Positions 9,170 to 26,914 of a DNA stretch of 64,000 bases are shown here, piece after piece. The DNA lies in the NCBI GenBank assembly GCA_016875015.1, contig VGSJ01000001.1, positions 12,889-76,888 of the forward strand, read 5' to 3'. Each line of letters starts with the position of its first letter. The stretch's first letter is position 1. The position numbers and the translations under genes were made by a program. The stretch comes from Deltaproteobacteria bacterium (GTDB taxonomy: Bacteria; Desulfobacterota; Desulfobaccia; Desulfobaccales; 0-14-0-80-60-11). Under the pieces are notes generated by a model. It searched no databases and was not told the origin of the DNA. It saw only the letters and a list, made by a program, of their open reading frames with translations.

Positions 9170-10882
9170 TCATGGGGTCGTATTCACCAAAATACTACTC
9201 ACGCCGCTGAGGATGGCATCAGCCACTAGGGAGGCGTCCATCTGGGGAGGAGTAAATTTGTCGAACCGGTTCAGAGCGATGAAGATGGTGCGCCCCGAGT
9301 CGGGATAATACAGCCAGCGTGTGAGAACGCCCGGGTTTTCGCCGCCGTGACCGTACATTTTCTCCCCAAACCAGGGGTCCGAGTCGAAAACCTCCAGTCC
9401 GAAGCCGAAGGTGGAGGGGGCTTTAGGGGTAGTCATCTGCGAAAGAGACTGGGCGTTCACCACCTTGCCCCCGAAGAGGGCCCGGGCCCAGGTAAGCATA
9501 TCTTGGGCGGTGCTCACCCCGGACCCGGAGGTCCAGTCCCAGGAGAGATCCCAACCGGAGGTGTCCACGAGCTGAGAGGTGTCCACGAGGGTGGGGTAAT
9601 AATCGACGTCGATCCAACAATAGTCCCGGGTATAAGGACCGGTTTTCTGGCCGCTTCTGGTGAGGGCGGTGCGGGACATCTCCCGGGGGCTGAAGAACCG
9701 GGTCCGGATGGCATCCTCTAAGGGTTCATCGGTGGCAGCTTCGGCAATCTTCCCCAGGAGATAGTAACCGGCGTTGCAATACTCAAATGCCGTGCCCGGG
9801 AGGAAAGCGGAGTTGTAAATCCAATATATGACTTCATCATAAGAAGAATCTGAAGGCCAGGCATAGTAAGGATCCGACAGCATAAGGTCAGTGAAAAATG
9901 GGTCACCCACATAGTCATAGAGACCGCTGGTGTGGTTCAGGAGCATGGCCACGGTGATCTGAGCACGGAAGGGCACGGTTCCAGGCGCTAGAAGGGCCGG
10001 CAGCCATTTTTCCACGGTATCGGACAGGGCGATTTTGTTCTCCTCCACCAGCTTCATAATGAGCGCCGCCGTGAAGACCTTGGTGACCCCGGCGAGGCGG
10101 ACCTGCATGTCCGGCGTCATGGGCACGTTGGCGTCCAAATCGGCCTTGCCGGCCGCGCCGATCCACACGCCGTCTTTGGTCTGCACGGCCAGGATCGCTC
10201 CCGGGACTCCGGCATCGCTCACCTGCGCGTCCAGGAGGGCCTGGAGTTGGGCGGTCGGAAGGGAAGGAGGGGTGATTGGCGTTTGGTTTTCCCCTTGATT
10301 TATCGGGAGGGGAGTCGGAATCGTGGTGCTTCTAAACCCCGATGGTGCACCGCCCCCAAGGATTCCCCCAACATTCGCCGGCGAGTTGGAGGGAAAACCA
10401 CCAACTGCCATGCCCTCTCCACTTCCCGAGGCGCCTCTGGCTTCTCCACTTTTCATGGACCCGGTCACACTCTGGGGCTCGCCAGTATCCCCGGCCCGGT
10501 TAGCGCCTTTCCCTTTTTTGGTTTTGGCGGTTTTGGCCTCTACGTCATCATCGGTCTCTTTAGACGCAGGTTCCTCAGCCTCTTTAGGCGCAACGTTCTC
10601 AGCAGGTGTTTGGTCCCCGCTGACTGGCGCGCTGGCGGTAAATCTACTTCCTTCGGTACTGCGAGGGACTTGAATCTCCCCTTTCTTTCCCACGGTAACT
10701 TGATCCCCTTTGGCATCCTTCGGGGCCGTTCTTATGATAATCACCTGCTCCGCGGGTTCTTGTGGAGAAGAGGTTTGTCCCTTTTCAGGAACAGGAGCCT
10801 TCCCCGGCATACTTCCGGTGTAAGCCGGCAGGGCCAGGATTAAACCCAAAATTATGGGAAAAAACTTTTTTATCATCTTCAA
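9170..10882 (-). CDS. Secreted beta-lactamase/PBP-fold (serine hydrolase family) protein with a long low-complexity N-terminal linker; nucleophile Ser replaced by Gly
   Basis: 570 aa with a signal peptide MKMIKKFFPIILGLILALPA. The C-terminal ~350 aa carry class-C-like motifs: [S]xxK appears as AGVTK, YxN as YCN, and a GHGG box. The Gly codon GGG is the reverse complement of 10088-10090. Confidence 0.75.
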   Translation of the reverse strand: MKMIKKFFPIILGLILALPAYTGSMPGKAPVPEKGQTSSPQEPAEQVIIIRTAPKDAKGDQVTVGKKGEIQVPRSTEGSRFTASAPVSGDQTPAENVAPKEAEEPASKETDDDVEAKTAKTKKGKGANRAGDTGEPQSVTGSMKSGEARGASGSGEGMAVGGFPSNSPANVGGILGGGAPSGFRSTTIPTPLPINQGENQTPITPPSLPTAQLQALLDAQVSDAGVPGAILAVQTKDGVWIGAAGKADLDANVPMTPDMQVRLAGVTKVFTAALIMKLVEENKIALSDTVEKWLPALLAPGTVPFRAQITVAMLLNHTSGLYDYVGDPFFTDLMLSDPYYAWPSDSSYDEVIYWIYNSAFLPGTAFEYCNAGYYLLGKIAEAATDEPLEDAIRTRFFSPREMSRTALTRSGQKTGPYTRDYCWIDVDYYPTLVDTSQLVDTSGWDLSWDWTSGSGVSTAQDMLTWARALFGGKVVNAQSLSQMTTPKAPSTFGFGLEVFDSDPWFGEKMYGHGGENPGVLTRWLYYPDSGRTIFIALNRFDKFTPPQMDASLVADAILSGVSSILVNTTP

Positions 10883-10929
10883 TCAGTAAACAAGGGCGTA
10901 TGCCGCCCCGGCTTTCCCCAGGCTCACCC

Positions 10930-11427
10930 TTACCGAGCGGTGCTGGCCGGCTTCGGGTTGATTATTTCCTGGGAAATCTCCACGTACATCGCTCCACCCC
11001 GATAAGTGGACTTAATGGCCAACTTCTTGGAGAAGGAGCCTGCGGTCACCATTAAGAAACTCTCTCCCTCTTTGACCACAGTGAGCTTTACTCTATGGCC
11101 CGAACGAGGCGCAACTCTCACCATGGTGGGGTCGCTGGAGTACCACGTCGGGCTTAGGTCATACTCGACCCTAAAAACATCCAGACCAACGGCCCGGGCA
11201 TAGCCCACATAGTACTTCCCGTTTTGGATATCGGTAAATTTGGCGGGTGACACCCATACTTCACCCATGAAAAAATTTTCCTTGGTTATGCTCTGGACTT
11301 TAAGCTCTACCTTAAGGGCGGTTATTGTCACCCCGGCGTCAGGGCTTTTACCCCATGCCGGGCCCATGGGCAGGGCCAGAAGCAACCCTAACCCGATAAC
11401 TATCCACCACCAGCGCTTTGCGACCAT
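10930..11427 (-). CDS. Secreted hypothetical protein, possible Ig-like (Big_2-type) fold
   Basis: 165 aa with a signal peptide ...LLLALPMGPAWG. WYSSDPTMVRVAPRSGHRVKLTVVKEGESFLMVTAG resembles the Big_2 consensus. Confidence 0.6.
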   Translation of the reverse strand: MVAKRWWWIVIGLGLLLALPMGPAWGKSPDAGVTITALKVELKVQSITKENFFMGEVWVSPAKFTDIQNGKYYVGYARAVGLDVFRVEYDLSPTWYSSDPTMVRVAPRSGHRVKLTVVKEGESFLMVTAGSFSKKLAIKSTYRGGAMYVEISQEIINPKPASTAR

Positions 11428-11561
11428 AACTATGTCCCTCTATTCGAGTATGCGAAATTTTTCGGCATCCTATCGATGCCTGCGTCAAGCTTGGCCTTTG
11501 AGACTCTTTTTCACGCTTGACCCCCTGAACCGTTCCTCGCAGCCAAGGCCTCGCCAGTGAC

Positions 11562-13649
11562 TTAAGGAGTAAACTGATTCGCGTTGAGAAAGGGTTGCAG
11601 CGGCGGCAGCGGCGGCGATTCGCCCGAGCGGCCGTCCCGGCCCACCGCCGGGACCTTGAAAGTGATCTCCACGCCGGTCTTCGTGGTCCCGTGAGGCACA
11701 ATCAGCTCGGGGTGATCAAAGGGACGAGATTCGTTTCTCACCCGGTTGTCGGTCAACGCCATCAGAAAGGACACCAGATCATTTTTATCCAATGGCTGCC
11801 CAATAAGCCGGCCGATGGGAGCTATCAAGGGGTCCAGGTCCGCCAGATTATTTTCATCAAAGTTGCCGCCCCGGGTATAAAAGTCCACCACCTGACGCAA
11901 GGTCGCCATGCCGCCATTGTGCATAAAGGGGCCGGTGAGTTCCACATTGCGGAGCTGGGGTACCTTAAAGGCCCCATGGTTGCCGTTCCGGTCCGGCGGT
12001 TGCGTGTTGCCGATGGGCAAGGGCGGGATAAAACCGGCAACATAGCTGGCCTGCGCCCCGGTCGGTGGACTGTTATAGCTTGGCGGTATCAGGCCATCCC
12101 TCAACAACATGCCGAGGCGGCTATAATCCAGGGGAAACTCAGCGCCGGTTAACGGGTTGATAAACGGTGCGGTCGCAAACCGGCCCAGGTCGTTTTGAGT
12201 CGGCACCACGCCGATATTATTCCACCCGTTATCATAAAAGGCTATCAGGCGGTCGGCGGTGTTCATTATTTCAACGGCTGCCGCGGGCGGCAGAAACAGG
12301 GGAGGAAATCTGGCCAGGGCGGCGCCATTGACTATTGGTTCGGCGGCCTGAGTACTGATCGGGAGAACGTGGCAGCCGGTGCAACCCACCGCCTGGAAAA
12401 GCGCCAGGCCGCGCTGCTGCGGTGGGGTCAGATTGGCGGCGCCTCCCAGGAAGAGGTCGAAGGGGGATTCGCCGGAAATCAGGGTCGCCTGATAAAGCTG
12501 CACCGCCAGACCGAAAAAGAGGGAGAAGTTGGCCTCCATCTGGGTGAACTGATTGGTGTTGCCCGGAGTGGCCGGCCCGGCAACCACTTTAAGGCCGAGG
12601 TCTGGGTTGGCCGGATTGACAAACTCAAGATGCTGGGTGGTATTATTCCAATACTGGGGTTGAAACGCCGCCTGGATCATGGCGCTATACGTGGTGTTCA
12701 GACCTTTAATCAAGGTAATCACGTCACCGATCTTCGTGGACTTGGCCAGGGGAGATTCCAGCACGCTGTCCCGGGGATGCACCGCCTGTTTGGCCAGGGG
12801 CGGCAGGCTGAGCATCTTTTTGCCGAGCTTGGGCCAGGTGCGCCCCCGGAAAGACATTTCCAAGTCGCTGAGGGGCGGTCCCACCGCCTGGGAGGCCAGG
12901 GAGGCGTTTTCCAGCCGGACCCTGGCCGGAGTGAGTCCCGTGCCTTTATCCTCGAAGACCCTGGCGTTAGCATCCGCCGGGCCAAAGGGATTGACGCCGT
13001 TAAAGATGTTGTTGGCCCGCCCATCCCAGAAATTGGCAAAATTAAAGGCCGCGTTGATGACCGTGGGGGTATTGCGGGGCTCCACCCGCCGGACGTTGAC
13101 TCTATGACCCCTGAGGTTAAGGTTCCAGATGGGGTCGATCAGGGGAGTGCTGATATCCACCGCGCTCCCTAACTTGATGTCCACAAACTGAGCCAATCTA
13201 ACCCCCTGGGAAGAAGCGACGTCGTGATTGAACGGCCGCGCCAGGGGGGCATCAGTATCGGGATCGACGGGCTTAAAAAAGGGAAAGCTAGCCTGGGTCA
13301 AGGTGGAGTTCGGACCGTGAGGGGGGCTAAAAGTAGTGGAGCCCCCTAAAATATCCGGATTCATCTGGTTGCGGAACCGGTTGTCGGCGCCGGCATGGAA
13401 GTGACAGCTGGCGCAGGCCGTCATGCCGTCGCTGCCCACCTGCATGTCCCAGAAGAGGGCCTTGCCCAATTGGATGGCGGCGTTTTTGTCGAATACATAG
13501 CTGGCAAGAAAAACCGGTTCTGGAACCGTAAACGCGCTCAGCGGTTGGGCCCAGCCGGTTCCCCCGAGCAGCGCCAGGCTAAGGGCGATGGCCAGTAACC
13601 CGAAGACTTGCCTTATCATCAACTTTTTCTTGACCCTTTTTTTCGGCAT
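11562..13649 (-). CDS. Di-haem cytochrome c peroxidase family protein (CCP/MauG-like), secreted
   Basis: 695 aa with a signal peptide. Two CxxCH motifs (CASCHFH, CTGCHV). FWDGRANN and FKVPQLRNVELTGPFMHNGGMATLRQVVDFY are typical of the CCP/MauG family. Confidence 0.88.
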   Translation of the reverse strand: MPKKRVKKKLMIRQVFGLLAIALSLALLGGTGWAQPLSAFTVPEPVFLASYVFDKNAAIQLGKALFWDMQVGSDGMTACASCHFHAGADNRFRNQMNPDILGGSTTFSPPHGPNSTLTQASFPFFKPVDPDTDAPLARPFNHDVASSQGVRLAQFVDIKLGSAVDISTPLIDPIWNLNLRGHRVNVRRVEPRNTPTVINAAFNFANFWDGRANNIFNGVNPFGPADANARVFEDKGTGLTPARVRLENASLASQAVGPPLSDLEMSFRGRTWPKLGKKMLSLPPLAKQAVHPRDSVLESPLAKSTKIGDVITLIKGLNTTYSAMIQAAFQPQYWNNTTQHLEFVNPANPDLGLKVVAGPATPGNTNQFTQMEANFSLFFGLAVQLYQATLISGESPFDLFLGGAANLTPPQQRGLALFQAVGCTGCHVLPISTQAAEPIVNGAALARFPPLFLPPAAAVEIMNTADRLIAFYDNGWNNIGVVPTQNDLGRFATAPFINPLTGAEFPLDYSRLGMLLRDGLIPPSYNSPPTGAQASYVAGFIPPLPIGNTQPPDRNGNHGAFKVPQLRNVELTGPFMHNGGMATLRQVVDFYTRGGNFDENNLADLDPLIAPIGRLIGQPLDKNDLVSFLMALTDNRVRNESRPFDHPELIVPHGTTKTGVEITFKVPAVGRDGRSGESPPLPPLQPFLNANQFTP

Positions 13650-13696
13650 GGGAAGTTCCTCATCCTTAATATTTGGGATAAAAATCTCTCATCGGC

Positions 13697-14929
13697 TCAA
13701 TCATCCAACAGTAACAGCGGCAAATACGGCAGACCGGCGCGCCTCTCCGCTTTAATATTATCTATGGCCAGCCGGCCTATAATGGTGGGGGGCGGAAAAG
13801 TGGCCGCCGCGTTATGGATGACCCGCAACTCGCCGGCGTTGGTTAAAGCCGCCGGCACGCTCCCCCGCGCGGCGGTAAGGTCGCCTGGACTGATGGGGAA
13901 TACCGCGGTAACCCAATCACCCCCGGCAGGCAGAGACAACCCCTTCGTTGACACCGCAATATTGAGCGGCGGCAGACTGCCCACCGCCACATCGCCGATC
14001 ACGACCCGCACCTGAAGGCCGTTGGGACCGGTATTTTTCAGCGACATGGTAATGAAATTCACGCCCGCGGCCAGGTAATTTCCTGACCATTGGGCGTTGC
14101 GATTAACGACGGATAGCCTGCTCCCGGGACCCACGGCGCCGTCGATGGCGGTAACTTGCATAAAGGCGTCGCCAACGCCGCCGGGGCCGCCGCCGGGAAT
14201 AATTTCCGGGGGAAACGGCGGCTCAATGCCGCCTAAGCCGGCATCCCAGTTCTGCAGCGTGCCGTATTGGAAGGTATCGATCCAGCCGACAGTCACCGCG
14301 GCAGCGGCTTTAACATTGTCCACGCCTAGTTGACCCACAGCCGAGGGGGGGGGGAAGGTCGGGTTCGGGTTGTGCATGATCCGCAACTCACCGGCATTGG
14401 TTAAGGCCGGCAGCACATTCCCCCGGGCCGCAACCATCCGGCTGGGAGTGATGTTGAAGGTCGCGGCAACCCACCCGCCGCCGGCCGGCAGAACCACCGA
14501 GTCCCTGGACACCGCCATATTGAGCGGCGGCAGACTGCCCACCGCCACATCGCCGATCATGACCCGCACCACCAGGTCAGTGGCCCCCGTGTTTTTCAGG
14601 GACATGGTAATGACGTTCACGCCCCCGGCCAGGTAATTCCCTGACCACTGCAAGTCCCGGTTTATGACGTTTATTCTGCTCCCCGGATTTGGCAGTCCCC
14701 CGATCCCGGTGATTTGCATATAGCGGTCGCCGACGCCCCCGGGGCCGCCATCTGGAATCACCACCGGGGGAAAGGGAGGCTCGATACCGCCCAGCCCCGC
14801 ATCCCAGTTCTGCAGCGTCCCGTCTTGGAATGTATCGATCTGGCCGAGAACCACCGCGGACCCCACGGTCGGTTGCAGAAGGACGGCCGCCAGCAGCAGG
14901 GTTCCCAGAAGCCACCTCAATACCTTCAC
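13697..14929 (-). CDS. Secreted protein made of two ~186-aa tandem repeats; unknown function; C-terminal PYLPLLLLDD tail
   Basis: 410 aa with a signal peptide. Repeat 1 (~14309-14851) and repeat 2 (~13751-14293) share long identical blocks (IDTFQxGTLQNWDAGLGGIEPPFPP, QWSGNYLAxGVN, IGDVAVGSLPPLN, LTNAGELR). The repeat is also visible at DNA level. Confidence 0.8.
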   Translation of the reverse strand: MKVLRWLLGTLLLAAVLLQPTVGSAVVLGQIDTFQDGTLQNWDAGLGGIEPPFPPVVIPDGGPGGVGDRYMQITGIGGLPNPGSRINVINRDLQWSGNYLAGGVNVITMSLKNTGATDLVVRVMIGDVAVGSLPPLNMAVSRDSVVLPAGGGWVAATFNITPSRMVAARGNVLPALTNAGELRIMHNPNPTFPPPSAVGQLGVDNVKAAAAVTVGWIDTFQYGTLQNWDAGLGGIEPPFPPEIIPGGGPGGVGDAFMQVTAIDGAVGPGSRLSVVNRNAQWSGNYLAAGVNFITMSLKNTGPNGLQVRVVIGDVAVGSLPPLNIAVSTKGLSLPAGGDWVTAVFPISPGDLTAARGSVPAALTNAGELRVIHNAAATFPPPTIIGRLAIDNIKAERRAGLPYLPLLLLDD

Positions 14930-15037
14930 TCGGATAATCCCCCTTAAACCCCTAGTTGGGCGTCATCCCAACCCCAACCCGGCGCACATCCCCGGGGGCC
15001 GCGGCGGCGGTGCTGCCGCCGCGCCCCGGGGGCGGGC

Positions 15038-16339
15038 TTAATTAATCACAAAGGGTATCCGGGCGGTCTTCACAATCCGCTCCCGGCCGGGGACATTCTC
15101 CCCCCGGGTATCAAAGAACTCCACCGTGGCGAAGGCGTTGACCGCGGTGTCCGTCCTGATCAGGGCGTCAATGCGCCGGGCCACGCTGTAACGAATGGGA
15201 GTCCCGGCCGGCACCCTATAGGCGTGGCTGTACCGGGCCAAAGGCGGCACCCCCAGGGCCCGGCCGTCCCAGGCAATGATCACCACGTCCACCGGGAAGG
15301 TGACCCGCATGGAGTTGTAGGAGGCGCAGAGGGCGCGGACCAGGATGGTCTTGCCCCTCTGGGCGTTGACGGACACCTGCATCCCGGTAACCCCGCCGTT
15401 GAGACCCGGGGGAACGACCACGTTAGGCGGGATGGTCCCCAGGACCCCAGGGGCGTTGGGCACCACCACACCGGTGATAAACCAGTTATCCGGGTTGAAG
15501 TCATGGAAGTGCCCGTGCCAGAACTGGTCGTCCACCCCGGGCCGGTTGAGGATGGCGGGATACCAGGCCCTGGCCTCCAGCCCGATCTGGTTGTGCCAGT
15601 AGGAGTCCATGTCATCACAGACCCAGAGGGCCTCATAATCATAGGGGACGGTATAGGCGTGGGGGTCCCCGCTGGCCAGGTCGCCGGCCACGAACCCCGG
15701 GAACTGGGGAAACGCCGCCAGGCTGGCCGCGGTGCGGCGCGGGTAGCCGCCGGCGGTGAGAGGGTTAGCATAGGCGTCGGGCGGCTCGATGATGAGGAAG
15801 CCGAAGAGTCCCATCTCAAAGTGCTGCACCGTGTTGCGGTGGCAGTGGTAGAAGTAGCTGCCGATGAAGTTGGGCTGCAACTGGTAGGTGTATTTCCCGA
15901 TTTCCATGGAGGTATGCCCCACCCCGTCGTTCATGGGAGTAGGCTCGATGCCGTGCCAGTGAATGGTATGGGGCGGCGACGTCTTGCCCTGGGTCTCAGC
16001 ATGGAAGATCACCCCCCGGGGCACCCGGAGGATAGTTCCCGGATAGGTGCCGCCTTTGGAGGCGTCCATGTCTTGGTCCCCGACGGCCATGATAACGAGG
16101 GGCGCCCCATTCCAACCGGTAATGGTGATGCCCTCAGTCAACGCCAACTGCACTGTGTTAGGAACTTTCACATCGCCTAAGCCAAGGGACTCCATAAATG
16201 CCGGCACGGGATTGGTGGGGGTCAGCAACTCAGGGGTGCCGGGGCTTTCCTTGGGCGGGTCCCACATCTTGGCCCACATGCCTTCCATGCCGGCAATGGA
16301 CCGGCGGGGTATGATAATACCGGAATTTGGCAGCGCCAT
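15038..16339 (-). CDS. Multicopper-oxidase-like protein without signal peptide (carries the domain-1-type HxHG and HxH copper motifs)
   Basis: 433 aa. HTIHWHG (H127/H129) and GSYFYHCHRNTVQHFEMGLFGFLIIEP (H165-C166-H167) match MCO motifs 1 and 2. A good SD (AAGGAGAG) precedes the ATG. The N-terminus is not signal-like. Confidence 0.8.
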   Translation of the reverse strand: MALPNSGIIIPRRSIAGMEGMWAKMWDPPKESPGTPELLTPTNPVPAFMESLGLGDVKVPNTVQLALTEGITITGWNGAPLVIMAVGDQDMDASKGGTYPGTILRVPRGVIFHAETQGKTSPPHTIHWHGIEPTPMNDGVGHTSMEIGKYTYQLQPNFIGSYFYHCHRNTVQHFEMGLFGFLIIEPPDAYANPLTAGGYPRRTAASLAAFPQFPGFVAGDLASGDPHAYTVPYDYEALWVCDDMDSYWHNQIGLEARAWYPAILNRPGVDDQFWHGHFHDFNPDNWFITGVVVPNAPGVLGTIPPNVVVPPGLNGGVTGMQVSVNAQRGKTILVRALCASYNSMRVTFPVDVVIIAWDGRALGVPPLARYSHAYRVPAGTPIRYSVARRIDALIRTDTAVNAFATVEFFDTRGENVPGRERIVKTARIPFVIN

Positions 16340-16415
16340 CTTATCTCTCCTTATCTCCTGTTCATCAAGTAATCCAGAGAACTAGGCTTATGGTCCCGAT
16401 CCTGATCTCAGGGGA

Positions 16416-17945
16416 TCAGACCAGGGGGGGGTCGTTGCCTCCCCCCGGCTTGGTCACCGGGGCGCCGTTCCCAAAGGTCAGCATCATGTCAAAATCTTCA
16501 TCCCGGGGAAAATCCTTCCAGCCGGGCGTGTTCCGGTCGCCGATAATAGTTATCCCCGAAATCGAGCCGCAGTTGTAGTTGCCGCCCTGGGCCGTCTGGG
16601 ACGGCTCCGTATGGTCGTGCATGGCGTAGACCAGGGGCGACTGCCGCTGGTGGATATCCACGTTTACCAACGGGTTGAGGAAACTTTGTTTGAAGGTGCC
16701 GGTCGCGGGCTGATACATGGCAAACTCTTGCTGGGGGGGCCAGGTGGCGCCGAGGCCGGCCGGAAGGCCCGGGTCCGCCCGGCCGATGCCCCGGGTATTG
16801 GGGACATCCGGGGGCCGCATGAAGGGAATCACCATGTCGTAAATGTCCATGGATTTCGAGGTGAAGGTGTCCACCCAGAGAAGGTTGGATTGGACCCGCC
16901 CGTTGACGCAGGCGATGAAAAAGTGATTGCCGTGCAGATGCATGGAATGGGTCCACAACCCGGCGTTCATGACCCGGGCCAGGCACGGCTCCCCCACCCG
17001 GAGCATGGGGGTGATGGCCGGATGATTGTGGCTGAAATGCCCGGATTGCCCGCAGATGGTGAAGAAATGCGGCTTCTTGTTGAAGGCGTTGTTGATGGCA
17101 ATCCCCGGGCCAAAGGGGAGGGGAAACGCCATCCTCGGATCGGTGTTGGTGGCGATGAGAGGAGGTAAGCCGGGCCTGTCAGTTTCCCCGATAAAGGCGT
17201 CCATGAACGCGGCCGCGGGGTAATCTGCGCCGGGCGTAAAGTTCCCCACCTCCTCAAAGAGCACGGGGCTGGCCTGGTGGAGCAGCCAGACGTACTGCCG
17301 GAAAGGCAGGGTGGGCGGGGTGGCCGCGGCATCCCCCTGTTCCCAGGCCAGGCCGGGCCACCAGGCGGCCCGGCCGAAATCGTTGAACAGTTGCTGGACA
17401 TTGGGCGTGGGCAAGCTGTAAGGGGTCAACCGATTACCCCCCCGGGCGCGGGTGCCGCGCAGGTTGGCGGGCATGACGATGAAGGCGCCGTGCAGCCCCA
17501 TGACCCGGTTCACCGGGGCATTCAGGTTGTCGTAGTAGAGATAGCTGCCCGCTCGGGTGACTCGAAAAGTTCCGGTCACGGTGGCCCCCGGCGCAATGGG
17601 ACCGCTGTTGTACATGCCCGGGATGAAAAAAGCGTGGTCTTCATCCAGGTCATTGGTGATACTGATGTTGATGGTATCGCCCACGGTGGTATAGATTTGC
17701 GGCCCGGGGCAATCCGCCGGGAAATTCGGGGCGTTCGATTTATAGATCCAGAAGTAACAGGTAGCCAGGTTGTTCCCCGGTTCATGCGTCACCATCTCTT
17801 TGACGGCATCGGTAATGGTGAAATTCAGGGTCTGGGTCTGGACTGCGGCGTAGGCCGGGTTGGCCATGAGCCACGGCATCTTGCTGCCCACCACCAGGGT
17901 GGCCAGACCGCTTACGCCGTATTTAATAAAATCACGCCGTTTCAT
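16416..17945 (-). CDS. Tat-exported multicopper-oxidase-like protein (carries the domain-3-type HxxHxH and an HDH variant of HCH)
   Basis: 509 aa. Twin-arginine signal MKRRDFIKYGVSGLATLVVG...AYA. WTHSMHLHGNHFF (H333/H336/H338) and YAMHDHTEP (H443-D444-H445, Asp where the T1 Cys is expected). The N-terminal cupredoxin domain has lost its motif 1/2 histidines (DHAFFIPG, YLYYDN). Confidence 0.8.
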   Translation of the reverse strand: MKRRDFIKYGVSGLATLVVGSKMPWLMANPAYAAVQTQTLNFTITDAVKEMVTHEPGNNLATCYFWIYKSNAPNFPADCPGPQIYTTVGDTINISITNDLDEDHAFFIPGMYNSGPIAPGATVTGTFRVTRAGSYLYYDNLNAPVNRVMGLHGAFIVMPANLRGTRARGGNRLTPYSLPTPNVQQLFNDFGRAAWWPGLAWEQGDAAATPPTLPFRQYVWLLHQASPVLFEEVGNFTPGADYPAAAFMDAFIGETDRPGLPPLIATNTDPRMAFPLPFGPGIAINNAFNKKPHFFTICGQSGHFSHNHPAITPMLRVGEPCLARVMNAGLWTHSMHLHGNHFFIACVNGRVQSNLLWVDTFTSKSMDIYDMVIPFMRPPDVPNTRGIGRADPGLPAGLGATWPPQQEFAMYQPATGTFKQSFLNPLVNVDIHQRQSPLVYAMHDHTEPSQTAQGGNYNCGSISGITIIGDRNTPGWKDFPRDEDFDMMLTFGNGAPVTKPGGGNDPPLV

Positions 17946-18068
17946 TGAACATCCTCCTTATAAATGGCTCCTGCCAAGAACCGGCCGACATCCGCCGCAC
18001 TCCGCTATCCTTATTTTGAGAAATTGATCCTGCAACCTGAGATAATTTTAATCGTCTTCCGTTCATTA

Positions 18069-18094
18069 GAAAATAGGTAAAAATGCCTATTTTC
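18069..18094. promoter_or_regulatory. Perfect 9-bp inverted repeat GAAAATAGG-N8-CCTATTTTC in the divergent intergenic region
   Basis: Read directly. It lies between the divergently transcribed genes starting at 17945 (-) and 18214 (+). It is a candidate operator; no binding protein can be assigned. Confidence 0.3.
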
Positions 18095-18213
18095 AAACCC
18101 GCGGGGCTTGGTTATATTCTTTGCAAAACAGCGGAGAGTTTTGGAAGAGATCGACCGTTAGAACCAGTAGGCACTGATAAAGACCGGCTTCAATCATTAA
18201 AGGAGAACTGCCC

Positions 18214-18780
18214 ATGCCCAGGTTGAGATCCAACCCATTTCTGTTCACCTCTCTTCTGGTGGCGGCCCTGGCGCTTTTCAGCGCCTCGACGCTGCTGGCC
18301 CAGCCCATGTCGAACCCTGAGGCCAAGCCCCCCAGGACCATGACCTGGGTTCTGACCAATGGTACGGTGATTGCCCCCGAGCAGATAAAAACTGACGGCA
18401 ATCTCACCACCGGCTATGTGGTGGAAGCCACGGCCGCGGCCCAAGGCCGGGCTCGCGTCCTCGCCGGCAAGTTCACCATTAAATGTACGATCGAAAACAA
18501 AGGGGGAGGACAGTTCCTGCTCCGGGGCGCCTGGGACATAACCCGGGAAGGTGCACCGCAGACGACCCGCCGCACCCCCGACTCCATCAAGGGGACCCTC
18601 GTGGCGAATCTCGACTTCAACCCCGCGGCTTCCATCAATCAAGCTGCCGGGGCCGGACCCATCAACGGCAATGTTCTCGTCAATCCTAAGCGGCGCCATG
18701 CGGGTAAGGAAGTCAAGGCCAAGGGAACCTTCAAGGGTGACGAAAAATTTAATGGAACCATTTTCCTCTCAAGAAACTGA
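18214..18780 (+). CDS. Secreted hypothetical protein
   Basis: 188 aa. SD AAAGGAG precedes the ATG. Signal peptide ...LALFSASTLLAQP. No recognisable domain. Confidence 0.7.
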   Translation: MPRLRSNPFLFTSLLVAALALFSASTLLAQPMSNPEAKPPRTMTWVLTNGTVIAPEQIKTDGNLTTGYVVEATAAAQGRARVLAGKFTIKCTIENKGGGQFLLRGAWDITREGAPQTTRRTPDSIKGTLVANLDFNPAASINQAAGAGPINGNVLVNPKRRHAGKEVKAKGTFKGDEKFNGTIFLSRN

Positions 18781-18930
18781 GGCGCGGCAGCACGACTTAA
18801 GCCGGTCCGCGGCGATCTTAGCAGGAGAACCGCAGGTCGTGCGAGATTTCCCGCAACTGTTCGTTGCGTTCTGAGAGAACCGCTGGTCAACCTTTATGCT
18901 TCTTTTAACGAGAACACCTAGGAGGGGATT

Positions 18931-21225
18931 ATGAGGGCCCGTAAGCGTTTATTTTCAAAGTTCATAGTCGCGGTGCTGACGTTGTTGGGGAGCGTCGCGT
19001 TGGTCGCAGGCCCGATATGGGCATCCGCCCCGTCAGTTGCGCCGGCAGCAGGGCCGAGTTCCTTATCCAAGGCCCAGGTGGCGGAGGGTTACGGGCGACT
19101 TCCCCTATTTTTCACCGAAAACCAGGGGCAGGTTGACTCACGAGTGAAGTTTTATGCCCGGGGCCAAGGTCATGCCGTCTTCTTTACTTCCGAAAGCATG
19201 GCCCTGAGCCTGAGCCGGGCTTCCGACGATGCCAAGAGAAGGGGCGAAAAGAAAGGTAAAGCCAAAGGTGACCAGGCGTTGGTGCAATTGCGCCCCCAGG
19301 GAATGCGCCCCGGAGTGGAAATCCTGGCCACCGAACCCTTGCCGGGCAAGGTTAACTATTACCAGGGGAATGATCCCGGGAAATGGCGCACCGAGGTGCC
19401 CACCTATAAGTCGGTGCTGTACCGGGAGGCCTACCCGGGCATCGACCTGAAATTTTACGGTGCCGGCCAGCAGGTGGAGTACGACCTCATTATTAAACCC
19501 GGGGCGGATCCAAAACAGGTTAAGTTCCTCTACCAGGGGATCAAGGCCCTGAAAATCACGAAGGGCGGCGAGCTGACCATCACCTTGCCCGGCGGCGGCC
19601 ACCTGGTCCAGCAGAAACCCGTGATCTACCAGGAAATCAACGGCCAGCGGGTCAGCCGGGAGGGGAAATTCCGGTTGCTGCCCGATAAGCGCGGTTATGG
19701 CTTTGATCTGGCCTCTTATGACACCCGCTATCCGCTGATCATTGATCCGGTGATCCTGGTCTATTCCACTTACCTGGGAGGCAACACCTGGGAATCAGGC
19801 AACGCCATTGCGGTGGACGCCTCCGGCAGCGCTTATGTGGCGGGCACCACCCAATCCGTGAACTTCCCCACCACCGTTGGTGTCGCTCAGACGGTTTTCG
19901 GCGGGGTGGAGGATGCCTTTGTCACTAAATTCAACCCCGCCGGCAACGCCCTGGTTTTCTCCACCTACCTGGGGGGCGCGGATGACGATATCGGCTTAGG
20001 TATTGCCGTGGACAGCACCGGCGCTGCCTATGTGGCGGGCGAGACCTTCTCCGCCAACTTTCCCCTGTCGGTGGCCCCGGCCCCGCTCCAAGCCGCCTTA
20101 GCGGGAACTAACAGCGCCTTTATGACCAAACTCAGCCCCACCGGGACCCTGGCCTACTCCACTTATCTGGGGGGGAGCGCGAGTGCTGCCGGGCCCGGCA
20201 CGGGTTCGACTATCGGCAAGGTCATTGCCATAGATGGCGCCGGGATTGCTTACCTAGCCGGGGATGCCAGCTCCACCAACTTCCCCCTGGCGGGCGCCTC
20301 CGTCCAGACCACGCTTAATGGAAGCGTCAACGCCTTTGTCGCCAAGATTAACCCCGCCATCTCAGGCCCGGGTGGCCTGGTATACTCCACCTACCTGGGA
20401 GGCGCGGTGTCCGAGGCGGCGTGGGGGATCGCGGTGAATACCGCCGGCACCGCCATTTATGTGGCCGGCGAGACCCAATCCGGTGACTTCCCCATCTCGG
20501 TGGCCCCGTTCCAGGCCACGAATAAGGGGTTCACCAACGCCTTTGTCACCCGGATTGACCCCAGCGTTGGAGGCCTGGCAGGCCTGGTGTACTCCACCTA
20601 CCTGGGAGGCTCCACGGTTATCCTTACCGGTTTGGGCGGCGACGATGCCGCTACCGGGGGCATTGCCGTGGATGCCGCCGGGAACGCCTACGTGGCCGGG
20701 AACACCGATTCCCTTGACTTCCCCATCACCCCGGGCGTCTTCCAGACTACCTTGAAAGGCGCCAGCAATGCCTTTGTCACCAAGTTCGATCCCACCGGGA
20801 CCCCGGTATATTCTACTTACCTGGGCGGCAACGGCAGTGATCTCGCCTGGTTTATTGCGGTGGACGCTTTAGGCAATGCTTATGTCACGGGCGAGACCAG
20901 TTCCGCTAATTTCCCCCTCTTAGGTCCTCTCCAGAAGACCCTCACGGGGGCGCCCAATGCCTTTGTAACCAAACTCAATGCCGGGGGGACCGGCCTCCTC
21001 TACTCCACTTATCTGGGTGGAACTGCGACCGACTTTGGCTTCGGCATCGCAGTGGATTCTTCCTCGCGCGCCTATGTGGCGGGTTTCACCACCTCCACCA
21101 ACTTCCCCACCAAGAATCCTTTTCAGGCTGCCCCGGCTCTAACTGCCACGGGGGCCGCCTTTGTTGCGAAGCTGCAATCGGGCACTATAACGCCGATCTA
21201 TGAAGTGCTCCTTCTGGATGAATGA
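18931..21225 (+). CDS. Secreted SBBP (beta-propeller) repeat protein; C-terminal PIYEVLLLDE tail
   Basis: 764 aa. SD GGAGG, signal peptide. About 9 repeats of the form YSTYLGG...D.G.GIAVD..G.AYV.G.T.S.NFP....Q... NAFVTK, which is the SBBP repeat pattern. Confidence 0.88.
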   Translation: MRARKRLFSKFIVAVLTLLGSVALVAGPIWASAPSVAPAAGPSSLSKAQVAEGYGRLPLFFTENQGQVDSRVKFYARGQGHAVFFTSESMALSLSRASDDAKRRGEKKGKAKGDQALVQLRPQGMRPGVEILATEPLPGKVNYYQGNDPGKWRTEVPTYKSVLYREAYPGIDLKFYGAGQQVEYDLIIKPGADPKQVKFLYQGIKALKITKGGELTITLPGGGHLVQQKPVIYQEINGQRVSREGKFRLLPDKRGYGFDLASYDTRYPLIIDPVILVYSTYLGGNTWESGNAIAVDASGSAYVAGTTQSVNFPTTVGVAQTVFGGVEDAFVTKFNPAGNALVFSTYLGGADDDIGLGIAVDSTGAAYVAGETFSANFPLSVAPAPLQAALAGTNSAFMTKLSPTGTLAYSTYLGGSASAAGPGTGSTIGKVIAIDGAGIAYLAGDASSTNFPLAGASVQTTLNGSVNAFVAKINPAISGPGGLVYSTYLGGAVSEAAWGIAVNTAGTAIYVAGETQSGDFPISVAPFQATNKGFTNAFVTRIDPSVGGLAGLVYSTYLGGSTVILTGLGGDDAATGGIAVDAAGNAYVAGNTDSLDFPITPGVFQTTLKGASNAFVTKFDPTGTPVYSTYLGGNGSDLAWFIAVDALGNAYVTGETSSANFPLLGPLQKTLTGAPNAFVTKLNAGGTGLLYSTYLGGTATDFGFGIAVDSSSRAYVAGFTTSTNFPTKNPFQAAPALTATGAAFVAKLQSGTITPIYEVLLLDE

Positions 21226-21241
21226 TCCTCGGCGCCCAACT

Positions 21242-21269
21242 CCGGCGCCTCCCCAATAAGAGGCGCCGG
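21242..21269 (+). terminator. GC hairpin (10-bp stem CCGGCGCCTC / GAGGCGCCGG) between the SBBP gene and the next gene
   Basis: Read directly. It is followed by CTATAATA rather than a T-run, so it may be an attenuator or RNA-stability element rather than a full terminator. Confidence 0.4.
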
Positions 21270-21290
21270 CTATAATACGGAGAACTGGTC

Positions 21291-22637
21291 ATGTTGAAGA
21301 AAGGTCGATTCCTTTGGTTGACCGTGGTGTTGCTCCTGGCTTTTGCCCAGCCGGGTCTGCCAGCCTTATCGGCGGTGGGGCCGGTGGTGCCGGATGCGGA
21401 CGGAGATCCCCTGACGCCCCCTTGGGCCCCCCCGTTCCAACTGGGGGCGCCCACCGGTTTTAACGGTTTTCCCGTGTGGTACCGGGACAGCTTGGGGCAG
21501 ACGCTGGTATTGGCCCCGGGGAATCCCCTGGTGTTCTCGGACCCGGTGGACCCCCTCAATCCCTTCTCAGTCCAAGTCGGGTTCGGCGGCGAAGCCATGT
21601 ATTGGACCGGCGATGCCACGATGCCTACGTCTGCCGGTACGGCCGATTTGGGTATGGCCTTGGAGTGCACCTTTAATACCGGCGATCCCGCCCCCGGGGA
21701 GCAAATCGTCTTTGCCCGGATCCGGATCCGCATCGACACCCCCATCCCGGGAACCTACACCGTATTTCATCCCTACGGCGCCAAGACGTTCTCGGACGTC
21801 CCGGCGGGAATAAGGGGGATCAACGACACCTCCGACATCGGGATCGGCGCCCCGGGAGACTTCACGGGAGCGTTGAACGGCCAGATCGGACCCTTTTTAC
21901 GCCAGGTGACCGGAGCGCCGCCGGGATATATCGGTGATGGGCTTCCTGCCCTGGTCACGGGCAGTCCCATCCCCAGCGCCCTCCATCCCTCGGGTTTCCA
22001 GAATTTTTTCCGGGTCGAAGGGCCGCCGGGCTCCGGTCTTGTTTGGGAAACCGATCAAATCGCCGTGGGGGGCAAATTCTATGACGGCACCCCCTACAAC
22101 ATTACCCGGGCCACCTATAATCGGAGCGCCGCCGGGGTCTTTGCGGATGTTTTCGTCACCGTCCCCCCGCCGGTCCCCGCGGGGACAGCTTTCAGGGTGA
22201 GGCGGCCTGATCAGCCGGCTGGATCTGGGGTTCTCATGACCCGCAGCCAGAACCAGTACTATGCCCGGGTCAACTTCCCCGCTGGTCTGCCGGCGAACCC
22301 GACGGTGGTTTGCACCGGCACCACCCCCGGTTTTACCCCCACGGTTCAGTCGTCATCTCTGGTGGCCGGAATCTTCATTACCAAGGCTGAAGCCACCCTG
22401 ATCACGGGGCGTCCTAATCGTTATAATTTAAACATTGAAGCCTTTTCCACTGATGTCCAGGCTGCTCTGACGGCTACAGGTTGGAGTGCGGCCAAGGTGC
22501 CGATGATCCCGCCGGCGGCGCCGGGAGCTCCGTGGACTTTGAGGGTCGCCGGCCTCGCCATACCCCCGGCCACGGTGACGGTGCAATCCGCCGCCGGACA
22601 AGGGGTGCAAAGCAACGTCATGGTCGTTTTACCGTAA
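21291..22637 (+). CDS. Secreted hypothetical protein (448 aa), no recognisable domain
   Basis: Signal peptide MLKKGRFLWLTVVLLLAFAQPGLPALSA. GC3-rich coding pattern consistent with its neighbours. Confidence 0.7.
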   Translation: MLKKGRFLWLTVVLLLAFAQPGLPALSAVGPVVPDADGDPLTPPWAPPFQLGAPTGFNGFPVWYRDSLGQTLVLAPGNPLVFSDPVDPLNPFSVQVGFGGEAMYWTGDATMPTSAGTADLGMALECTFNTGDPAPGEQIVFARIRIRIDTPIPGTYTVFHPYGAKTFSDVPAGIRGINDTSDIGIGAPGDFTGALNGQIGPFLRQVTGAPPGYIGDGLPALVTGSPIPSALHPSGFQNFFRVEGPPGSGLVWETDQIAVGGKFYDGTPYNITRATYNRSAAGVFADVFVTVPPPVPAGTAFRVRRPDQPAGSGVLMTRSQNQYYARVNFPAGLPANPTVVCTGTTPGFTPTVQSSSLVAGIFITKAEATLITGRPNRYNLNIEAFSTDVQAALTATGWSAAKVPMIPPAAPGAPWTLRVAGLAIPPATVTVQSAAGQGVQSNVMVVLP

Positions 22638-22715
22638 GCAACCTTGATGAAGTGTTACTTTTGGCAGACGGATGAATGCAACCCGACTCCGGCGCCGGCA
22701 AAATAAAATCTACCC

Positions 22716-22757
22716 GGCGCCCCGCCTTCCTGAGGGAAGGCGGGGCGCCTTTATTTT
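22716..22757 (+). terminator. Rho-independent terminator ending the plus-strand secreted-protein operon
   Basis: GGCGCCCCGCCTTCC-TGA-GGGAAGGCGGGGCGCC (15-bp stem) followed by TTTATTTT. Confidence 0.85.
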
Positions 22758-25605: not shown

Positions 25606-26914
25606 TGAGTTGAGTATACGCGAAGCTTTTAGCGACTGGCTAAAGCAGGATGGTTTTGAGGTGGAAACTGCGGACGACGGACCGGTGGCATTGGCCAAGA
25701 TCAAAGAACGCCATTATGATATCATGCTGGTTGACGTCAAAATGCCTCAAATGGACGGGATCACGCTGCTCAAGCACTTGAAGGAGAACGATCCCGATAC
25801 GGCCGTGGTGATGATGACGGCCCACGGCGCCATTCAGGACGCGGTGGAAGCGATAAAGCTGGGGGCTAACGATTATCTGCTTAAGCCGTTCGAATTGGAG
25901 GAACTCAGCCTCACTATCGAGAAACTGGTTCAGATGCAGACTCTGGCCATGGAAAACCTGATTCTCAAAGACCGGGTAGCGTCCATAACCCGCTTTGAAA
26001 ACCTGGTAGGCCAATCCCCCCCGATGCTCAAGCTCTTCGAAACCATCGTCAATGTGGCCCGCAGCGATGCCACCGTATTAATTACCGGGGAAACCGGCAC
26101 CGGCAAAGAATTGGTGGCCAGGACCATTCACGCCCGGAGCCCGCGCGGCTACAGTCCATTTATTGCCATAAACTGTGGGGCCTTCACGGAACATCTCCTG
26201 GAGAGCGAACTCTTCGGCCATGAGCGAGGCGCTTTCACCGACGCCAAATTTACCAAGAAAGGCCGGTTGGAGATGGCCAACGCCGGGACCCTCTTTCTCG
26301 ATGAAGTGGGCGACATCTCCATGAAGATGCAGATCGATCTCCTGCGCGTCCTGGAAACCCACGAATTCACCCGGGTGGGAGGGACAACGACGATAAACAG
26401 CGACTTTCGGGTCATCGCCGCCACCCATCAGGACCTTCAGGAAAGCATACGGCGTCGCACCTTCCGTCAAGATCTCTTCTACCGCCTTAACGTCATCCAC
26501 CTGGAGGTTCCCCCTTTACGGGAGCGGCCGGAAGATATCCCCCTGCTGGCTGAGCACTTCCTGCGACGCTATGCCACCGAGACCGGCAAGAAGATTGACT
26601 CCATTCATCCAGAAGCCCTGGCGGCGATGCGGCGACATGCATGGCCCGGGAACATCCGGGAGCTGGAAAATGCCATCGAGCGGGCGGTCGTGGTGGGAAA
26701 AAGCCGGCAGATCAAACCTGCCGACCTGCCCTTTGTCTTTGCTCCGGGTGGAGCGGAGGAAGCCGCGAATCTCTCTTTGGAGGATATGGAGCGCCGTCAC
26801 ATCGCCCTGGTGCTGGCCGCGGAAGGCGGTCACATCACCAACGCTGCCAAGGTCCTGCGGATCAACCGCAACACCCTTTACGAGAAAATCAAGAAATATG
26901 GCCTAACGCCTTGA
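25565..26914 (+). CDS. Sigma54-dependent response regulator (NtrC family: REC + AAA+ + Fis-type HTH)
   Basis: ATG 25565 (SD GGGGAG) gives MLPHKKITILVVDDE and overlaps the kinase gene by 41 nt. Walker A GETGTGKE, GAFTGA-type loop (GAFTDA), and C-terminal HTH NAAKVLRINRNTLYEKIKKYGL. The track ORF start (25397) is an upstream extension. Confidence 0.92.
   Translation: MLPHKKITILVVDDELSIREAFSDWLKQDGFEVETADDGPVALAKIKERHYDIMLVDVKMPQMDGITLLKHLKENDPDTAVVMMTAHGAIQDAVEAIKLGANDYLLKPFELEELSLTIEKLVQMQTLAMENLILKDRVASITRFENLVGQSPPMLKLFETIVNVARSDATVLITGETGTGKELVARTIHARSPRGYSPFIAINCGAFTEHLLESELFGHERGAFTDAKFTKKGRLEMANAGTLFLDEVGDISMKMQIDLLRVLETHEFTRVGGTTTINSDFRVIAATHQDLQESIRRRTFRQDLFYRLNVIHLEVPPLRERPEDIPLLAEHFLRRYATETGKKIDSIHPEALAAMRRHAWPGNIRELENAIERAVVVGKSRQIKPADLPFVFAPGGAEEAANLSLEDMERRHIALVLAAEGGHITNAAKVLRINRNTLYEKIKKYGLTP

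Follow-up and report, generated by a model that had tools for sequence, protein, structure and literature searches.

A nine-gene island of exported proteins in a deltaproteobacterium and its putative split-ligand multicopper oxidase pair

Background

Multicopper oxidases (MCOs) are among the best-studied metalloenzymes, and in all described forms known to us one kind of chain supplies the oxygen-reducing cluster. Here, we analyse a stretch of 64,000 nucleotides (nt) from a Deltaproteobacteria bacterium (Desulfobacterota, Desulfobaccales; assembly GCA_016875015.1, contig VGSJ01000001.1, positions 12,889 to 76,888), hereafter the window, and within it an island of nine genes arranged in two divergent strings. 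The minus-strand string consists of mcoA and mcoB, which encode two MCO-like proteins (together McoAB), followed by rep410, ccp695, p165 and blac570, whereas the plus-strand string comprises p188, sbbp764 and p448. We hold, with slightly better than even confidence, that this island is a lineage-specific elaboration of a widespread two-gene module for a heteromeric two-domain MCO, combined with a dihaem modifier of the MauG/MbnH type (ccp695) and with scaffold proteins.

The closest described oxidases are the type C two-domain MCOs (mgLAC, 2zwn; the enzymes of Nitrosomonas europaea, 3g5w, and Arthrobacter, 3gdc), which are homotrimers with all four HxH motifs in one chain. In known two-domain MCOs, the trinuclear copper cluster sits where domain 1 of one chain meets domain 2 of its neighbour. 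The Mnx complex of Mn-oxidising Bacillus (MnxG with MnxE/F) has several subunits, but all of its oxidase ligands reside in one six-domain chain, and its small subunits do not belong to the MCOs. With respect to export, the relevant precedents are hitchhikers of the twin-arginine translocation (Tat) pathway, such as NxrAB or the small and large subunits of hydrogenases, in which one subunit carries the RR signal and its adjacent partner none. To our knowledge, and in the literature searched, Tat hitchhiking has not been described for any multicopper oxidase. A paper on Nitrospina reports both hitchhiking of the nitrite oxidoreductase (NXR) and an MnxG-like MCO, the latter not of the McoAB family. 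Likewise, the literature searched contains no description of a heteromeric MCO pair with a split cluster.

The second group of relevant enzymes comprises MauG and MbnH, which react with H2O2 to reach a bis-Fe(IV) state and then oxidise residues in a partner protein. In this way, MauG forms tryptophan tryptophylquinone (TTQ) in methylamine dehydrogenase (MADH), and MbnH forms kynurenine in the copper protein MbnP (PMC11951088). In addition, a copper-dependent methanethiol oxidase is accompanied in its operon by a mauG-like gene and SCO1 (PMC5739008).

Results and discussion

McoA and McoB carry complementary copper ligands

A preliminary description of the window, made by a model from the sequence alone, had recognised an MCO-like pair, and both proteins indeed match the Pfam family Cu-oxidase_3. 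McoA displays the Tat motif RRDFIK, and RR is found in every McoA of the family, whereas McoB is devoid of a signal peptide throughout the family, an arrangement reminiscent of the Tat hitchhikers mentioned above. An AlphaFold2 (AF2) model of McoA (mean predicted local distance difference test score, pLDDT, 83) retrieved two-domain MCOs as top matches in Foldseek (2zwn, 3gdc, 3g5w and 7rab; template modelling score, TM(target), ~0.67). Residues 61-352 of McoA and 79-362 of McoB are colinear paralogues (hhalign, E 7e-6), and in each chain an insertion of ~130 amino acids (aa) separates the two domains.

The copper ligands are divided between the two chains. In McoB, they reside in domain 1 as H124-x2-H127-W-H129 and H165-C166-H167-x5-H173, invariant in 33-67 homologues, which comprise an invariant type-1 (blue copper) site (H124, C166, H173) and two HxH motifs (H127/H129 and H165/H167); no conserved His is left in domain 2. 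McoA presents the reverse picture: domain 2 contains H333-x2-H336-x-H338 (/H341) and H443-D444-H445, with His residues invariant in 80 sequences, two HxH motifs (H336/H338 and H443/H445) and an invariant Asp444 where the blue-copper Cys would sit, while domain 1 has lost its copper ligands, both motifs being gone and H104 and H152 alone remaining. Domain 1 of McoB aligns with domain 1 of 2zwn and 3g5w, including the HTIHWHG and YHCH segments, and the HxxHxH of McoA aligns with the domain-2 motif of the same two enzymes. Neither polypeptide thus contains the eight His of four HxH motifs; each has two motifs, and the full set exists only in the pair. No fusion of the two proteins occurs among 80 loci, in which the A and B clusters stay separate under single linkage.

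From these complementary ligands, with four HxH motifs present only in the pair, we infer a heteromeric oxidase with one trinuclear cluster at the interface between McoB domain 1 and McoA domain 2. Because a complete set of trinuclear-cluster ligands exists in the pair, reduction of O2 is chemically plausible. The earlier proposal of a trinuclear site that reduces O2 therefore holds as to the ligands, and the reaction itself stays at the level of plausibility.

Compared with the type C enzymes, McoAB has in common the two cupredoxin domains, the domain-1 blue copper with HxxHxH/HCH and the domain-2 HxxHxH, but distributes them over two paralogues with two HxH motifs each. McoA lacks the domain-1 ligands and McoB the domain-2 ligands, the interdomain insertion is additional, and only one of the chains has an export signal. 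With Mnx, the predicted complex shares the multi-subunit nature of an MCO. Neither McoA nor McoB matched the MnxG model of NCBIfam, and the idea that the pair represents a split MnxG was rejected, as no similarity was detected by blastp or NCBIfam.

Distribution and neighbours of the mcoAB pair

A database search with McoA yielded 712 clusters (clustering at 90% identity), the family sharing 45-59% identity across phyla. When one genome per species was scanned, 79 mcoA loci were obtained, and all nine island proteins were compared by tblastn with 80 independent loci, neighbourhoods being considered within 10 kb (single loci are cited below by our own L numbers). For 72 loci, 1.5 kb or more of downstream sequence was available, and in 71 of them mcoA is immediately followed by mcoB in the same orientation. 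Carriers belong to about ten bacterial phyla and to Ca. Methanoperedens. They include Nitrospirota, Chloroflexi, Phycisphaerae, Poribacteria, Victivallales, a Dongiaceae alphaproteobacterium, many Desulfobacterota (Geomonas, Citrifermentans bremense, Geobacter, Syntrophobacteraceae) and Bacillota (Neobacillus, Bacillus, Paenibacillus). They are mainly anaerobes from groundwater, sediments and anoxic lake water, along with methane-oxidising archaea; cultured representatives are Geomonas, Citrifermentans bremense and Neobacillus. A long dihaem homologue (38-54% identity) accompanies mcoAB in 23 of the 80 loci; among the 40 loci that span 19 kb or more, it is present in 17. For p448 homologues, the corresponding figures are 17/80 and 14/40. 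Furthermore, NHL and RCC1 beta-propellers of assorted kinds recur beside the pair.

The mcoAB family is often multi-copy per genome. Several metagenome-assembled genomes (MAGs) contain two to four separate loci, for instance JACRCK01 (L011, L012, L021, L080) and DATNCC01 (L053, L065, L072), and a second, paralogous locus (L083, 45% identical) was found in Lake Tanganyika samples.

Two further arrangements recur. The first is a two-gene module, located down- or upstream of mcoAB (L007, L010, L023, L030, L038, L042, L050, L059, L071), in which a YtkA-SCO1 copper chaperone is followed by a cytochrome c fused to Peripla_BP_6; this module could supply copper and electrons to the oxidase. In total, YtkA-SCO1 genes stand beside mcoAB in 11 loci and the cytochrome fusion recurs near the pair in 10. 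The second is an MnxG-like giant MCO of 1400-1700 aa encoded directly after mcoB in 7 loci of Neobacillus, Paenibacillus, Bacillus and Methanoperedens (L036:13195-17682, L037, L047, L054, L022, L005:13297-18372, L070). Its top NCBIfam match is MnxG, with an E value of 2e-85 and far below the cutoff, and in several loci a p448-like gene comes next.

Copper genes in the neighbourhood raise the question whether McoAB might be a periplasmic cuprous oxidase of the CueO/PcoA/CopA kind, working beside Cus efflux while the accessory proteins bind or buffer copper. CusB-like adaptors in 15 and CusA in 8 of about 72 loci would suit such a role, as would the CusB-YHS gene directly after the island in close relatives, the 11 YtkA-SCO1 loci and the matches of the pair to the NCBIfam models of CopA and CueO, weak as these are, with scores far below the cutoffs. 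Moreover, Tat export of an MCO, often near Cus efflux genes, is common to both. Nevertheless, CueO, PcoA and CopA are single three-domain chains with Met-rich inserts, whereas McoAB consists of two two-domain chains in which the Met-rich segments of cuprous oxidases are absent (Met content 3.0-3.7%, no Met-rich tracts). The window contains no Cus gene, SCO1 and YtkA suit cofactor delivery equally, the accessory proteins are nearly devoid of His, Cys and Met, and the two to four copies in many genomes would be unusual for a resistance oxidase. Copper homeostasis is thus a possible function of the island, though in our view an unlikely one.

The dihaem enzyme has the haem-ligand Tyr of MauG and MbnH

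The assignment of ccp695 to the dihaem cytochrome c peroxidase (CCP)/MauG-like proteins, already made in the preliminary description, is confirmed by a match to PF03150 (CCP_MauG). Its two CxxCH motifs start at C79 and C423, and its C-terminal segment is nearest to MbnH (6e1c) and MauG. Within this segment, Tyr591 aligns with Tyr294 of MauG and with the MbnH Tyr, in a column that holds the Met ligand in the peroxidases 1nml and 1iqc, and the residue is conserved in 95% of 21 ccp695 homologues from other mcoAB loci. In addition, the Trp of FWDGRA is present, corresponding to the Trp between the haems that marks MauG and MbnH. A detoxifying CCP would combine two CxxCH motifs with a Met ligand; as ccp695 has Tyr at the Met position, like MauG and MbnH, removal of H2O2, as formerly proposed for this protein, is not the best reading.

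The protein shares with MauG and MbnH the dihaem CCP fold, the two CxxCH motifs and a Tyr at the axial-ligand position of the second haem, and its gene lies near that of a copper protein, like MbnH and the mauG-like gene of the methanethiol oxidase operon. Yet ccp695 is outside the MauG and MbnH families in the strict sense. Its scores of 85 and 95 bits fall far short of the respective cutoffs, 444 and 363 (TIGR03791 and TIGR04039, for the TTQ_mauG and MbnH families), it is with 695 aa about twice the usual size of 350-390 aa and has three large insertions, and no homologue of the partners MbnP or MADH was detected among the island proteins with Pfam and NCBIfam. Considering the MauG/MbnH-type Tyr and the MauG and MbnH precedents beside copper proteins, a maturation or protein-oxidising role appears more likely than H2O2 detoxification. 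As a side note, the entry MDT9046827.1, a partial 'Escherichia coli' hypothetical protein from a 259-bp contig, is an 86-aa fragment at least 90% identical to ccp695 and probably reflects contamination of that assembly.

The nine genes are conserved as a block in close relatives

All nine genes recur in identical order and orientation on contigs from three other metagenomes, representing three metagenomic species (L088-L091). The McoA homologues are 78-80% identical and the island products in general share 65-88% aa identity with those of the window, with the exception of p448, which is only ~33% identical and duplicated. The surroundings differ: the relatives have a CusB-YHS adaptor gene directly after the blac570 gene, whereas the island in the window is flanked on the left by racemase and ABC-transporter genes and on the right by a histidine kinase/sigma54 activator pair, which is absent beside the orthologous islands. 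As the block is kept while both flanks change, the genes behave as a unit. Synteny in related genomes, which the preliminary description had named as a check, is thereby established, and its remark that this gene combination is not a recognised system agrees with the literature searched, where we found no description of it.

These observations bear on the alternative explanation that an oxidase operon and an unrelated surface-protein operon are chance neighbours. The p188-SBBP pair, it is true, occurs elsewhere without a visible oxidase, five of the genes are absent from all other mcoAB loci, and p448-like domains are found in Pseudomonas cadherin-like proteins away from any MCO. However, besides the full block kept in three relatives with both flanks changed, the two strings are linked by p448, which here belongs to the divergent string but in other lineages directly follows mcoB and so ties the plus string to the oxidase, and the intergenic region contains a conserved shared palindrome. 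We therefore regard an accidental neighbourhood as very unlikely.

Regulation

The kinase adjoining the island had been described as combining Rossmann modules with PAS domains. Two PAS domains, HisKA and HATPase_c are clearly recognised, whereas the Rossmann match (GFO_IDH_MocA) is weak; two GxGxxG Rossmann-like modules can be discerned at the N-terminus. Each PAS domain has a Cys motif, C-x12-C-x6-CP in the first (KPCYEV...EPC...LACP) and C-x12-C-x5-CP in the second (KHCYEV...EPC...HPCP), which suggests a sensor that binds a metal or a cluster. The NtrC-type activator is confirmed as such, its open reading frame (ORF) overlapping the 3' end of the kinase gene by ~40 nt.

Control of the island by this pair, as initially assumed, did not stand up: the pair is missing beside the orthologous islands and no canonical -24/-12 element lies upstream. 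Matches to the sigma54 consensus occur across the window at chance level, and a scan of both upstream regions for GG-N10-GC gave a best score of 8/12 (upstream of mcoA), with a GC that is not conserved in the relatives. In other lineages, -24/-12 elements scoring at least 10/12 were found upstream of mcoA in 6 of 68 cases, compared with 1 of 136 controls, and some loci with good elements also adjoin sigma54 two-component systems. Good elements are present in L022 (54 nt upstream of mcoA), L076, L024, L007, L009 and L071, for example TGGCACTGCTTTTGCT. Thus, sigma54 control is reasonable for the mcoAB family but unsupported in this island. A different candidate operator is a perfect 8-bp inverted repeat, AAAATAGG-N8-CCTATTTT (18070-18093), which overlaps a sigma70-like -35 element and recurs in one or two copies in the much longer and otherwise diverged intergenic regions of L089 and L090.

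With these results, the model put forward in the preliminary description can be weighed, in which an anaerobe scavenges O2 and H2O2 in the periplasm under control of the adjacent kinase and sigma54 activator. It could draw on the complete trinuclear ligand set, the predominance of anaerobes among the carriers, the cytochrome c-Peripla_BP_6 fusion downstream of the pair in 10 loci as a possible electron donor, and the minority of other lineages that do have sigma54 two-component systems and -24/-12 elements (6/68 vs 1/136). It is at odds with the Tyr ligand of the dihaem enzyme in place of the peroxidase Met, with the missing synteny between kinase/activator and island in the relatives, with control regions devoid of a canonical sigma54 promoter in the window, and with the presence of the family in aerobic Neobacillus and Paenibacillus. 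Scavenging under such control consequently seems doubtful to us.

Accessory proteins and the cell surface

Beyond the oxidase pair and the dihaem enzyme, the island encodes six proteins which, judged by sequence, look like non-catalytic scaffolds of the envelope or surface rather than enzymes. They contain almost no His, Cys or Met, and none has a composition rich in metal ligands.

The tandem repeat announced earlier for rep410 is evident, its halves being 69% identical over 183 aa. Elsewhere, this domain occurs as a single copy in surface proteins of ~230 aa with PEP-CTERM, VPLPA-CTERM or SLH. The end of rep410 (...ERRAGLPYLPLLLLDD) has no transmembrane helix and does not qualify as PEP-CTERM. 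Instead, a tail ERRxGxPYLPLLLLD[DN] (here PYLPLLLLDD, 13697-13740), kept in at least 14 orthologues, occupies the exact position of the PEP-CTERM anchor in the homologous single-domain proteins. A comparable hydrophobic-acidic tail, PIYEVLLLDE, forms the C-terminus of sbbp764 (21190-21225), and within the window such tails are confined to these two proteins. They may represent an undescribed C-terminal sorting or anchoring signal.

The sbbp764 protein is an SBBP propeller, as previously recognised (Pfam DUF7948, E 7e-65; SBBP, E 5e-37). Its gene forms a conserved pair with p188, a small unannotated family with 77 representatives at E<=1e-3 among 1.84 billion, and this pair recurs in L093 and L096. 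In L093, p188 is 46% and the SBBP/DUF7948 protein over its full length 60% identical to the window proteins; the row (L093:1830-7440) consists of the p188 homologue, the SBBP gene, another p188-like gene and the gene of a multihaem cytochrome (718 aa) that includes an fn3 domain, and no oxidase gene is present on this 7.8-kb contig. The p188-SBBP pair may thus accompany different extracellular redox proteins.

That blac570 has a beta-lactamase fold without its nucleophile is borne out by a match to PF00144 (E 1e-57) in which the Ser of SxxK is Gly. The protein combines a low-complexity linker of ~200 aa with an S12 D-peptidase/DD-carboxypeptidase fold nearest to alkaline D-peptidase and R61-type DD-peptidases (4y7p, E 1e-40). 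In the alignment with 4y7p, this Gly takes the place of the Ser of SVTK, whereas YxN and HGG are retained; the motif reads AGVTK in the window protein and two orthologues and AGGTK in a third. As the nucleophile Ser is Gly, blac570 is probably a non-catalytic binding module.

In contrast to its former label as 'Big_2-like', p165 matches no Pfam family at E<=10 and no NCBIfam model, and its orthologues are restricted to close relatives. Searches of p165, p188 and rep410 against Pfam (E<=10) and the Protein Data Bank, by sequence and profile, gave nothing usable. As stated before, the 188-aa and 448-aa proteins have no recognisable domain, neither matching Pfam at E<=10. The AF2 model of p448 (pLDDT 90) consists of tandem immunoglobulin (Ig)-like beta-sandwiches without a metal-ligand signature. 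No functional lead emerged from this fold, as Foldseek returned generic Ig/FN3 arrays with low TM scores. Its nearest homologue outside the clade (56% identical) is encoded directly after mcoA-mcoB in L094/L095. In Pseudomonas, related domains also occur joined to cadherin-like repeats, in proteins without relation to MCOs, and p448 was discarded as a marker of an MnxG system in Pseudomonas, the P. putida homologue lying in an unrelated four-gene cluster without an MCO.

Proteins of this type invite the view that the oxidase, mounted on surface scaffolds, acts on extracellular Mn(II)/Fe(II) or on humic or phenolic compounds. Surface-type accessories are indeed abundant around the pair (SBBP, NHL and RCC1 propellers, Ig-like arrays, a PEP-CTERM-type domain); in Bacillota and Methanoperedens the MnxG-like giant MCO directly follows mcoB and precedes a p448-like gene, the p188-SBBP pair adjoins a multihaem cytochrome in L093, and paralogous copies per genome resemble the diversification of laccase-like enzymes. 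Nonetheless, these indications are all contextual, neither subunit has family-level similarity to MnxG, MofA, MoxA or PcoA, and the island lacks genes for outer-membrane or secretion components, so that we consider extracellular metal or humic oxidation rather unlikely.

A working model for the island

For the heteromeric oxidase with its dihaem modifier and scaffolds, we infer a sequence of steps that extends from heteromer formation and co-export over an interface cluster with O2 as acceptor to dihaem maturation and scaffold roles. Folding and association of McoA and McoB would take place in the cytoplasm, followed by joint export via Tat with McoB as passenger. Domain 1 of McoB would contribute the blue copper and half of the trinuclear His, domain 2 of McoA the other half. 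An extracytoplasmic donor would pass electrons to the blue copper of McoB, and O2 would be reduced to water at the single trinuclear cluster in the A/B interface. Most likely, ccp695, with a putative His/Tyr-ligated haem, would oxidatively modify a residue of a partner, either the oxidase or p448, or else act as a strong H2O2-driven oxidant, while p448, p188 with the SBBP protein, rep410, blac570 and p165 probably serve to keep the oxidase or its substrate on the cell surface.

Several points weigh against this model. First, the heteromer and its interface cluster are deduced from sequence. Second, the stoichiometry of McoAB is unclear, since two chains with four domains cannot complete the ring of six domains found in the known trimers. 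Third, an O2-dependent enzyme is puzzling in view of the origin of the contig (Lake Tanganyika, 300 m depth) and of the many anaerobes among the carriers. Fourth, the dihaem enzyme is not obligatory, as more than half of the loci lack its gene. Finally, blac570, p165, rep410, sbbp764 and p188 gave no match near the oxidase pair in the 80 other loci (tblastn). As these five genes were detected beside the pair in the close clade only, the nine-gene set is to be seen as a lineage-specific elaboration and not as a general module.

Layout of the locus and remainder of the window

ORFs were found for all nine genes, in two divergent strings and exactly where the preliminary description had placed them (Table 1). 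At the Joint Genome Institute (JGI), the source contig is Ga0194111_10003061, from sample 3300020083 of a Lake Tanganyika metagenome; the JGI gene calls on it match these ORFs, except that the start of blac570 is placed later. The sequences also agree with eight signal peptides and a signal-less ninth product, McoB, partner of the Tat protein McoA. Signal peptides were judged from reading the N-terminal sequences, eight of which, by eye, exhibit a basic n-region, a hydrophobic core and an AxA-like site. The strong terminator proposed for the plus string has a 15-bp stem with 13 GC pairs, followed by the T run TTTATTTT. The designation as two operons is consistent with strand and spacing (gaps of 47-150 nt), by which operon status was judged, but the minus string contains weak terminator-like hairpins. 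A scan of the window against Rfam detected no RNA families.

Table 1 Features of the island and adjoining regulatory genes (positions in the window)
Feature	Position	Strand	Description
blac570	9170-10882	minus	570 aa, exported S12-type fold
p165	10930-11427	minus	165 aa, small exported protein
ccp695	11562-13649	minus	695 aa, exported dihaem MauG/MbnH-type
rep410	13697-14929	minus	410 aa, exported, duplicated domain
mcoB	15038-16339	minus	433 aa, signal-less MCO subunit
mcoA	16416-17945	minus	509 aa, Tat-type MCO subunit
Divergent control region	17946-18213		between the two strings
p188	18214-18780	plus	188 aa, small exported protein
sbbp764	18931-21225	plus	764 aa, exported DUF7948 + SBBP propeller
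p448	21291-22637	plus	448 aa, exported all-beta protein
Intrinsic terminator	22716-22749	plus	closes plus-strand string
Soluble PAS histidine kinase	23269-25605	plus	adjoins island
NtrC-type sigma54 activator	about 25565-26914	plus	adjoins kinase

In NCBI, McoA is listed as FJ121_00105, 'hypothetical protein'. For McoB, the cluster look-up gave JGI and Logan sources only and no NCBI accession, and for rep410 the homologue search listed a JGI source only. As the NCBI accessions of McoA and ccp695 leave room for only one gene between them, the NCBI annotation of this MAG may lack either mcoB or rep410.

Further downstream (29651-63840), the window contains a large cluster for polysaccharide biosynthesis with genes for a GDP-mannose dehydratase, an epimerase, a priming sugar transferase, many glycosyltransferases of GT1, GT2 and GT4, and a B12-radical SAM enzyme. 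Segments of low GC content (38-46%) are located at about 42-48, 56-58 and 62-64 kb.

Conclusions

The object of this study is both narrower and more general than first thought: a split-ligand MCO pair, often accompanied by a MauG-type enzyme and an Ig-like protein. Speculatively, and with little confidence, McoAB might constitute an unrecognised class of hetero-oligomeric MCOs with a two-subunit cluster, distributed over anaerobic bacteria and Methanoperedens, and the long MauG-like enzyme would install a protein-derived cofactor or cross-link that they need for activity. Carried by varying scaffolds on the surface, such enzymes would serve as high-affinity extracytoplasmic O2 reductases or as metal or humic oxidases at oxic-anoxic boundaries, and would represent a living evolutionary intermediate between two-domain and multi-domain MCOs.

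If true, a cluster split between two paralogues, one of them a Tat passenger, would be a new MCO architecture, and the pair would inform the origin of three- and six-domain oxidases from two-domain ancestors. The recurrent MauG-type partner suggests that a further protein-derived cofactor is to be found, and the anaerobe-rich distribution raises the question of the role that an O2-reducing copper enzyme plays in such organisms. Cultured carriers make these questions about McoAB experimentally accessible.

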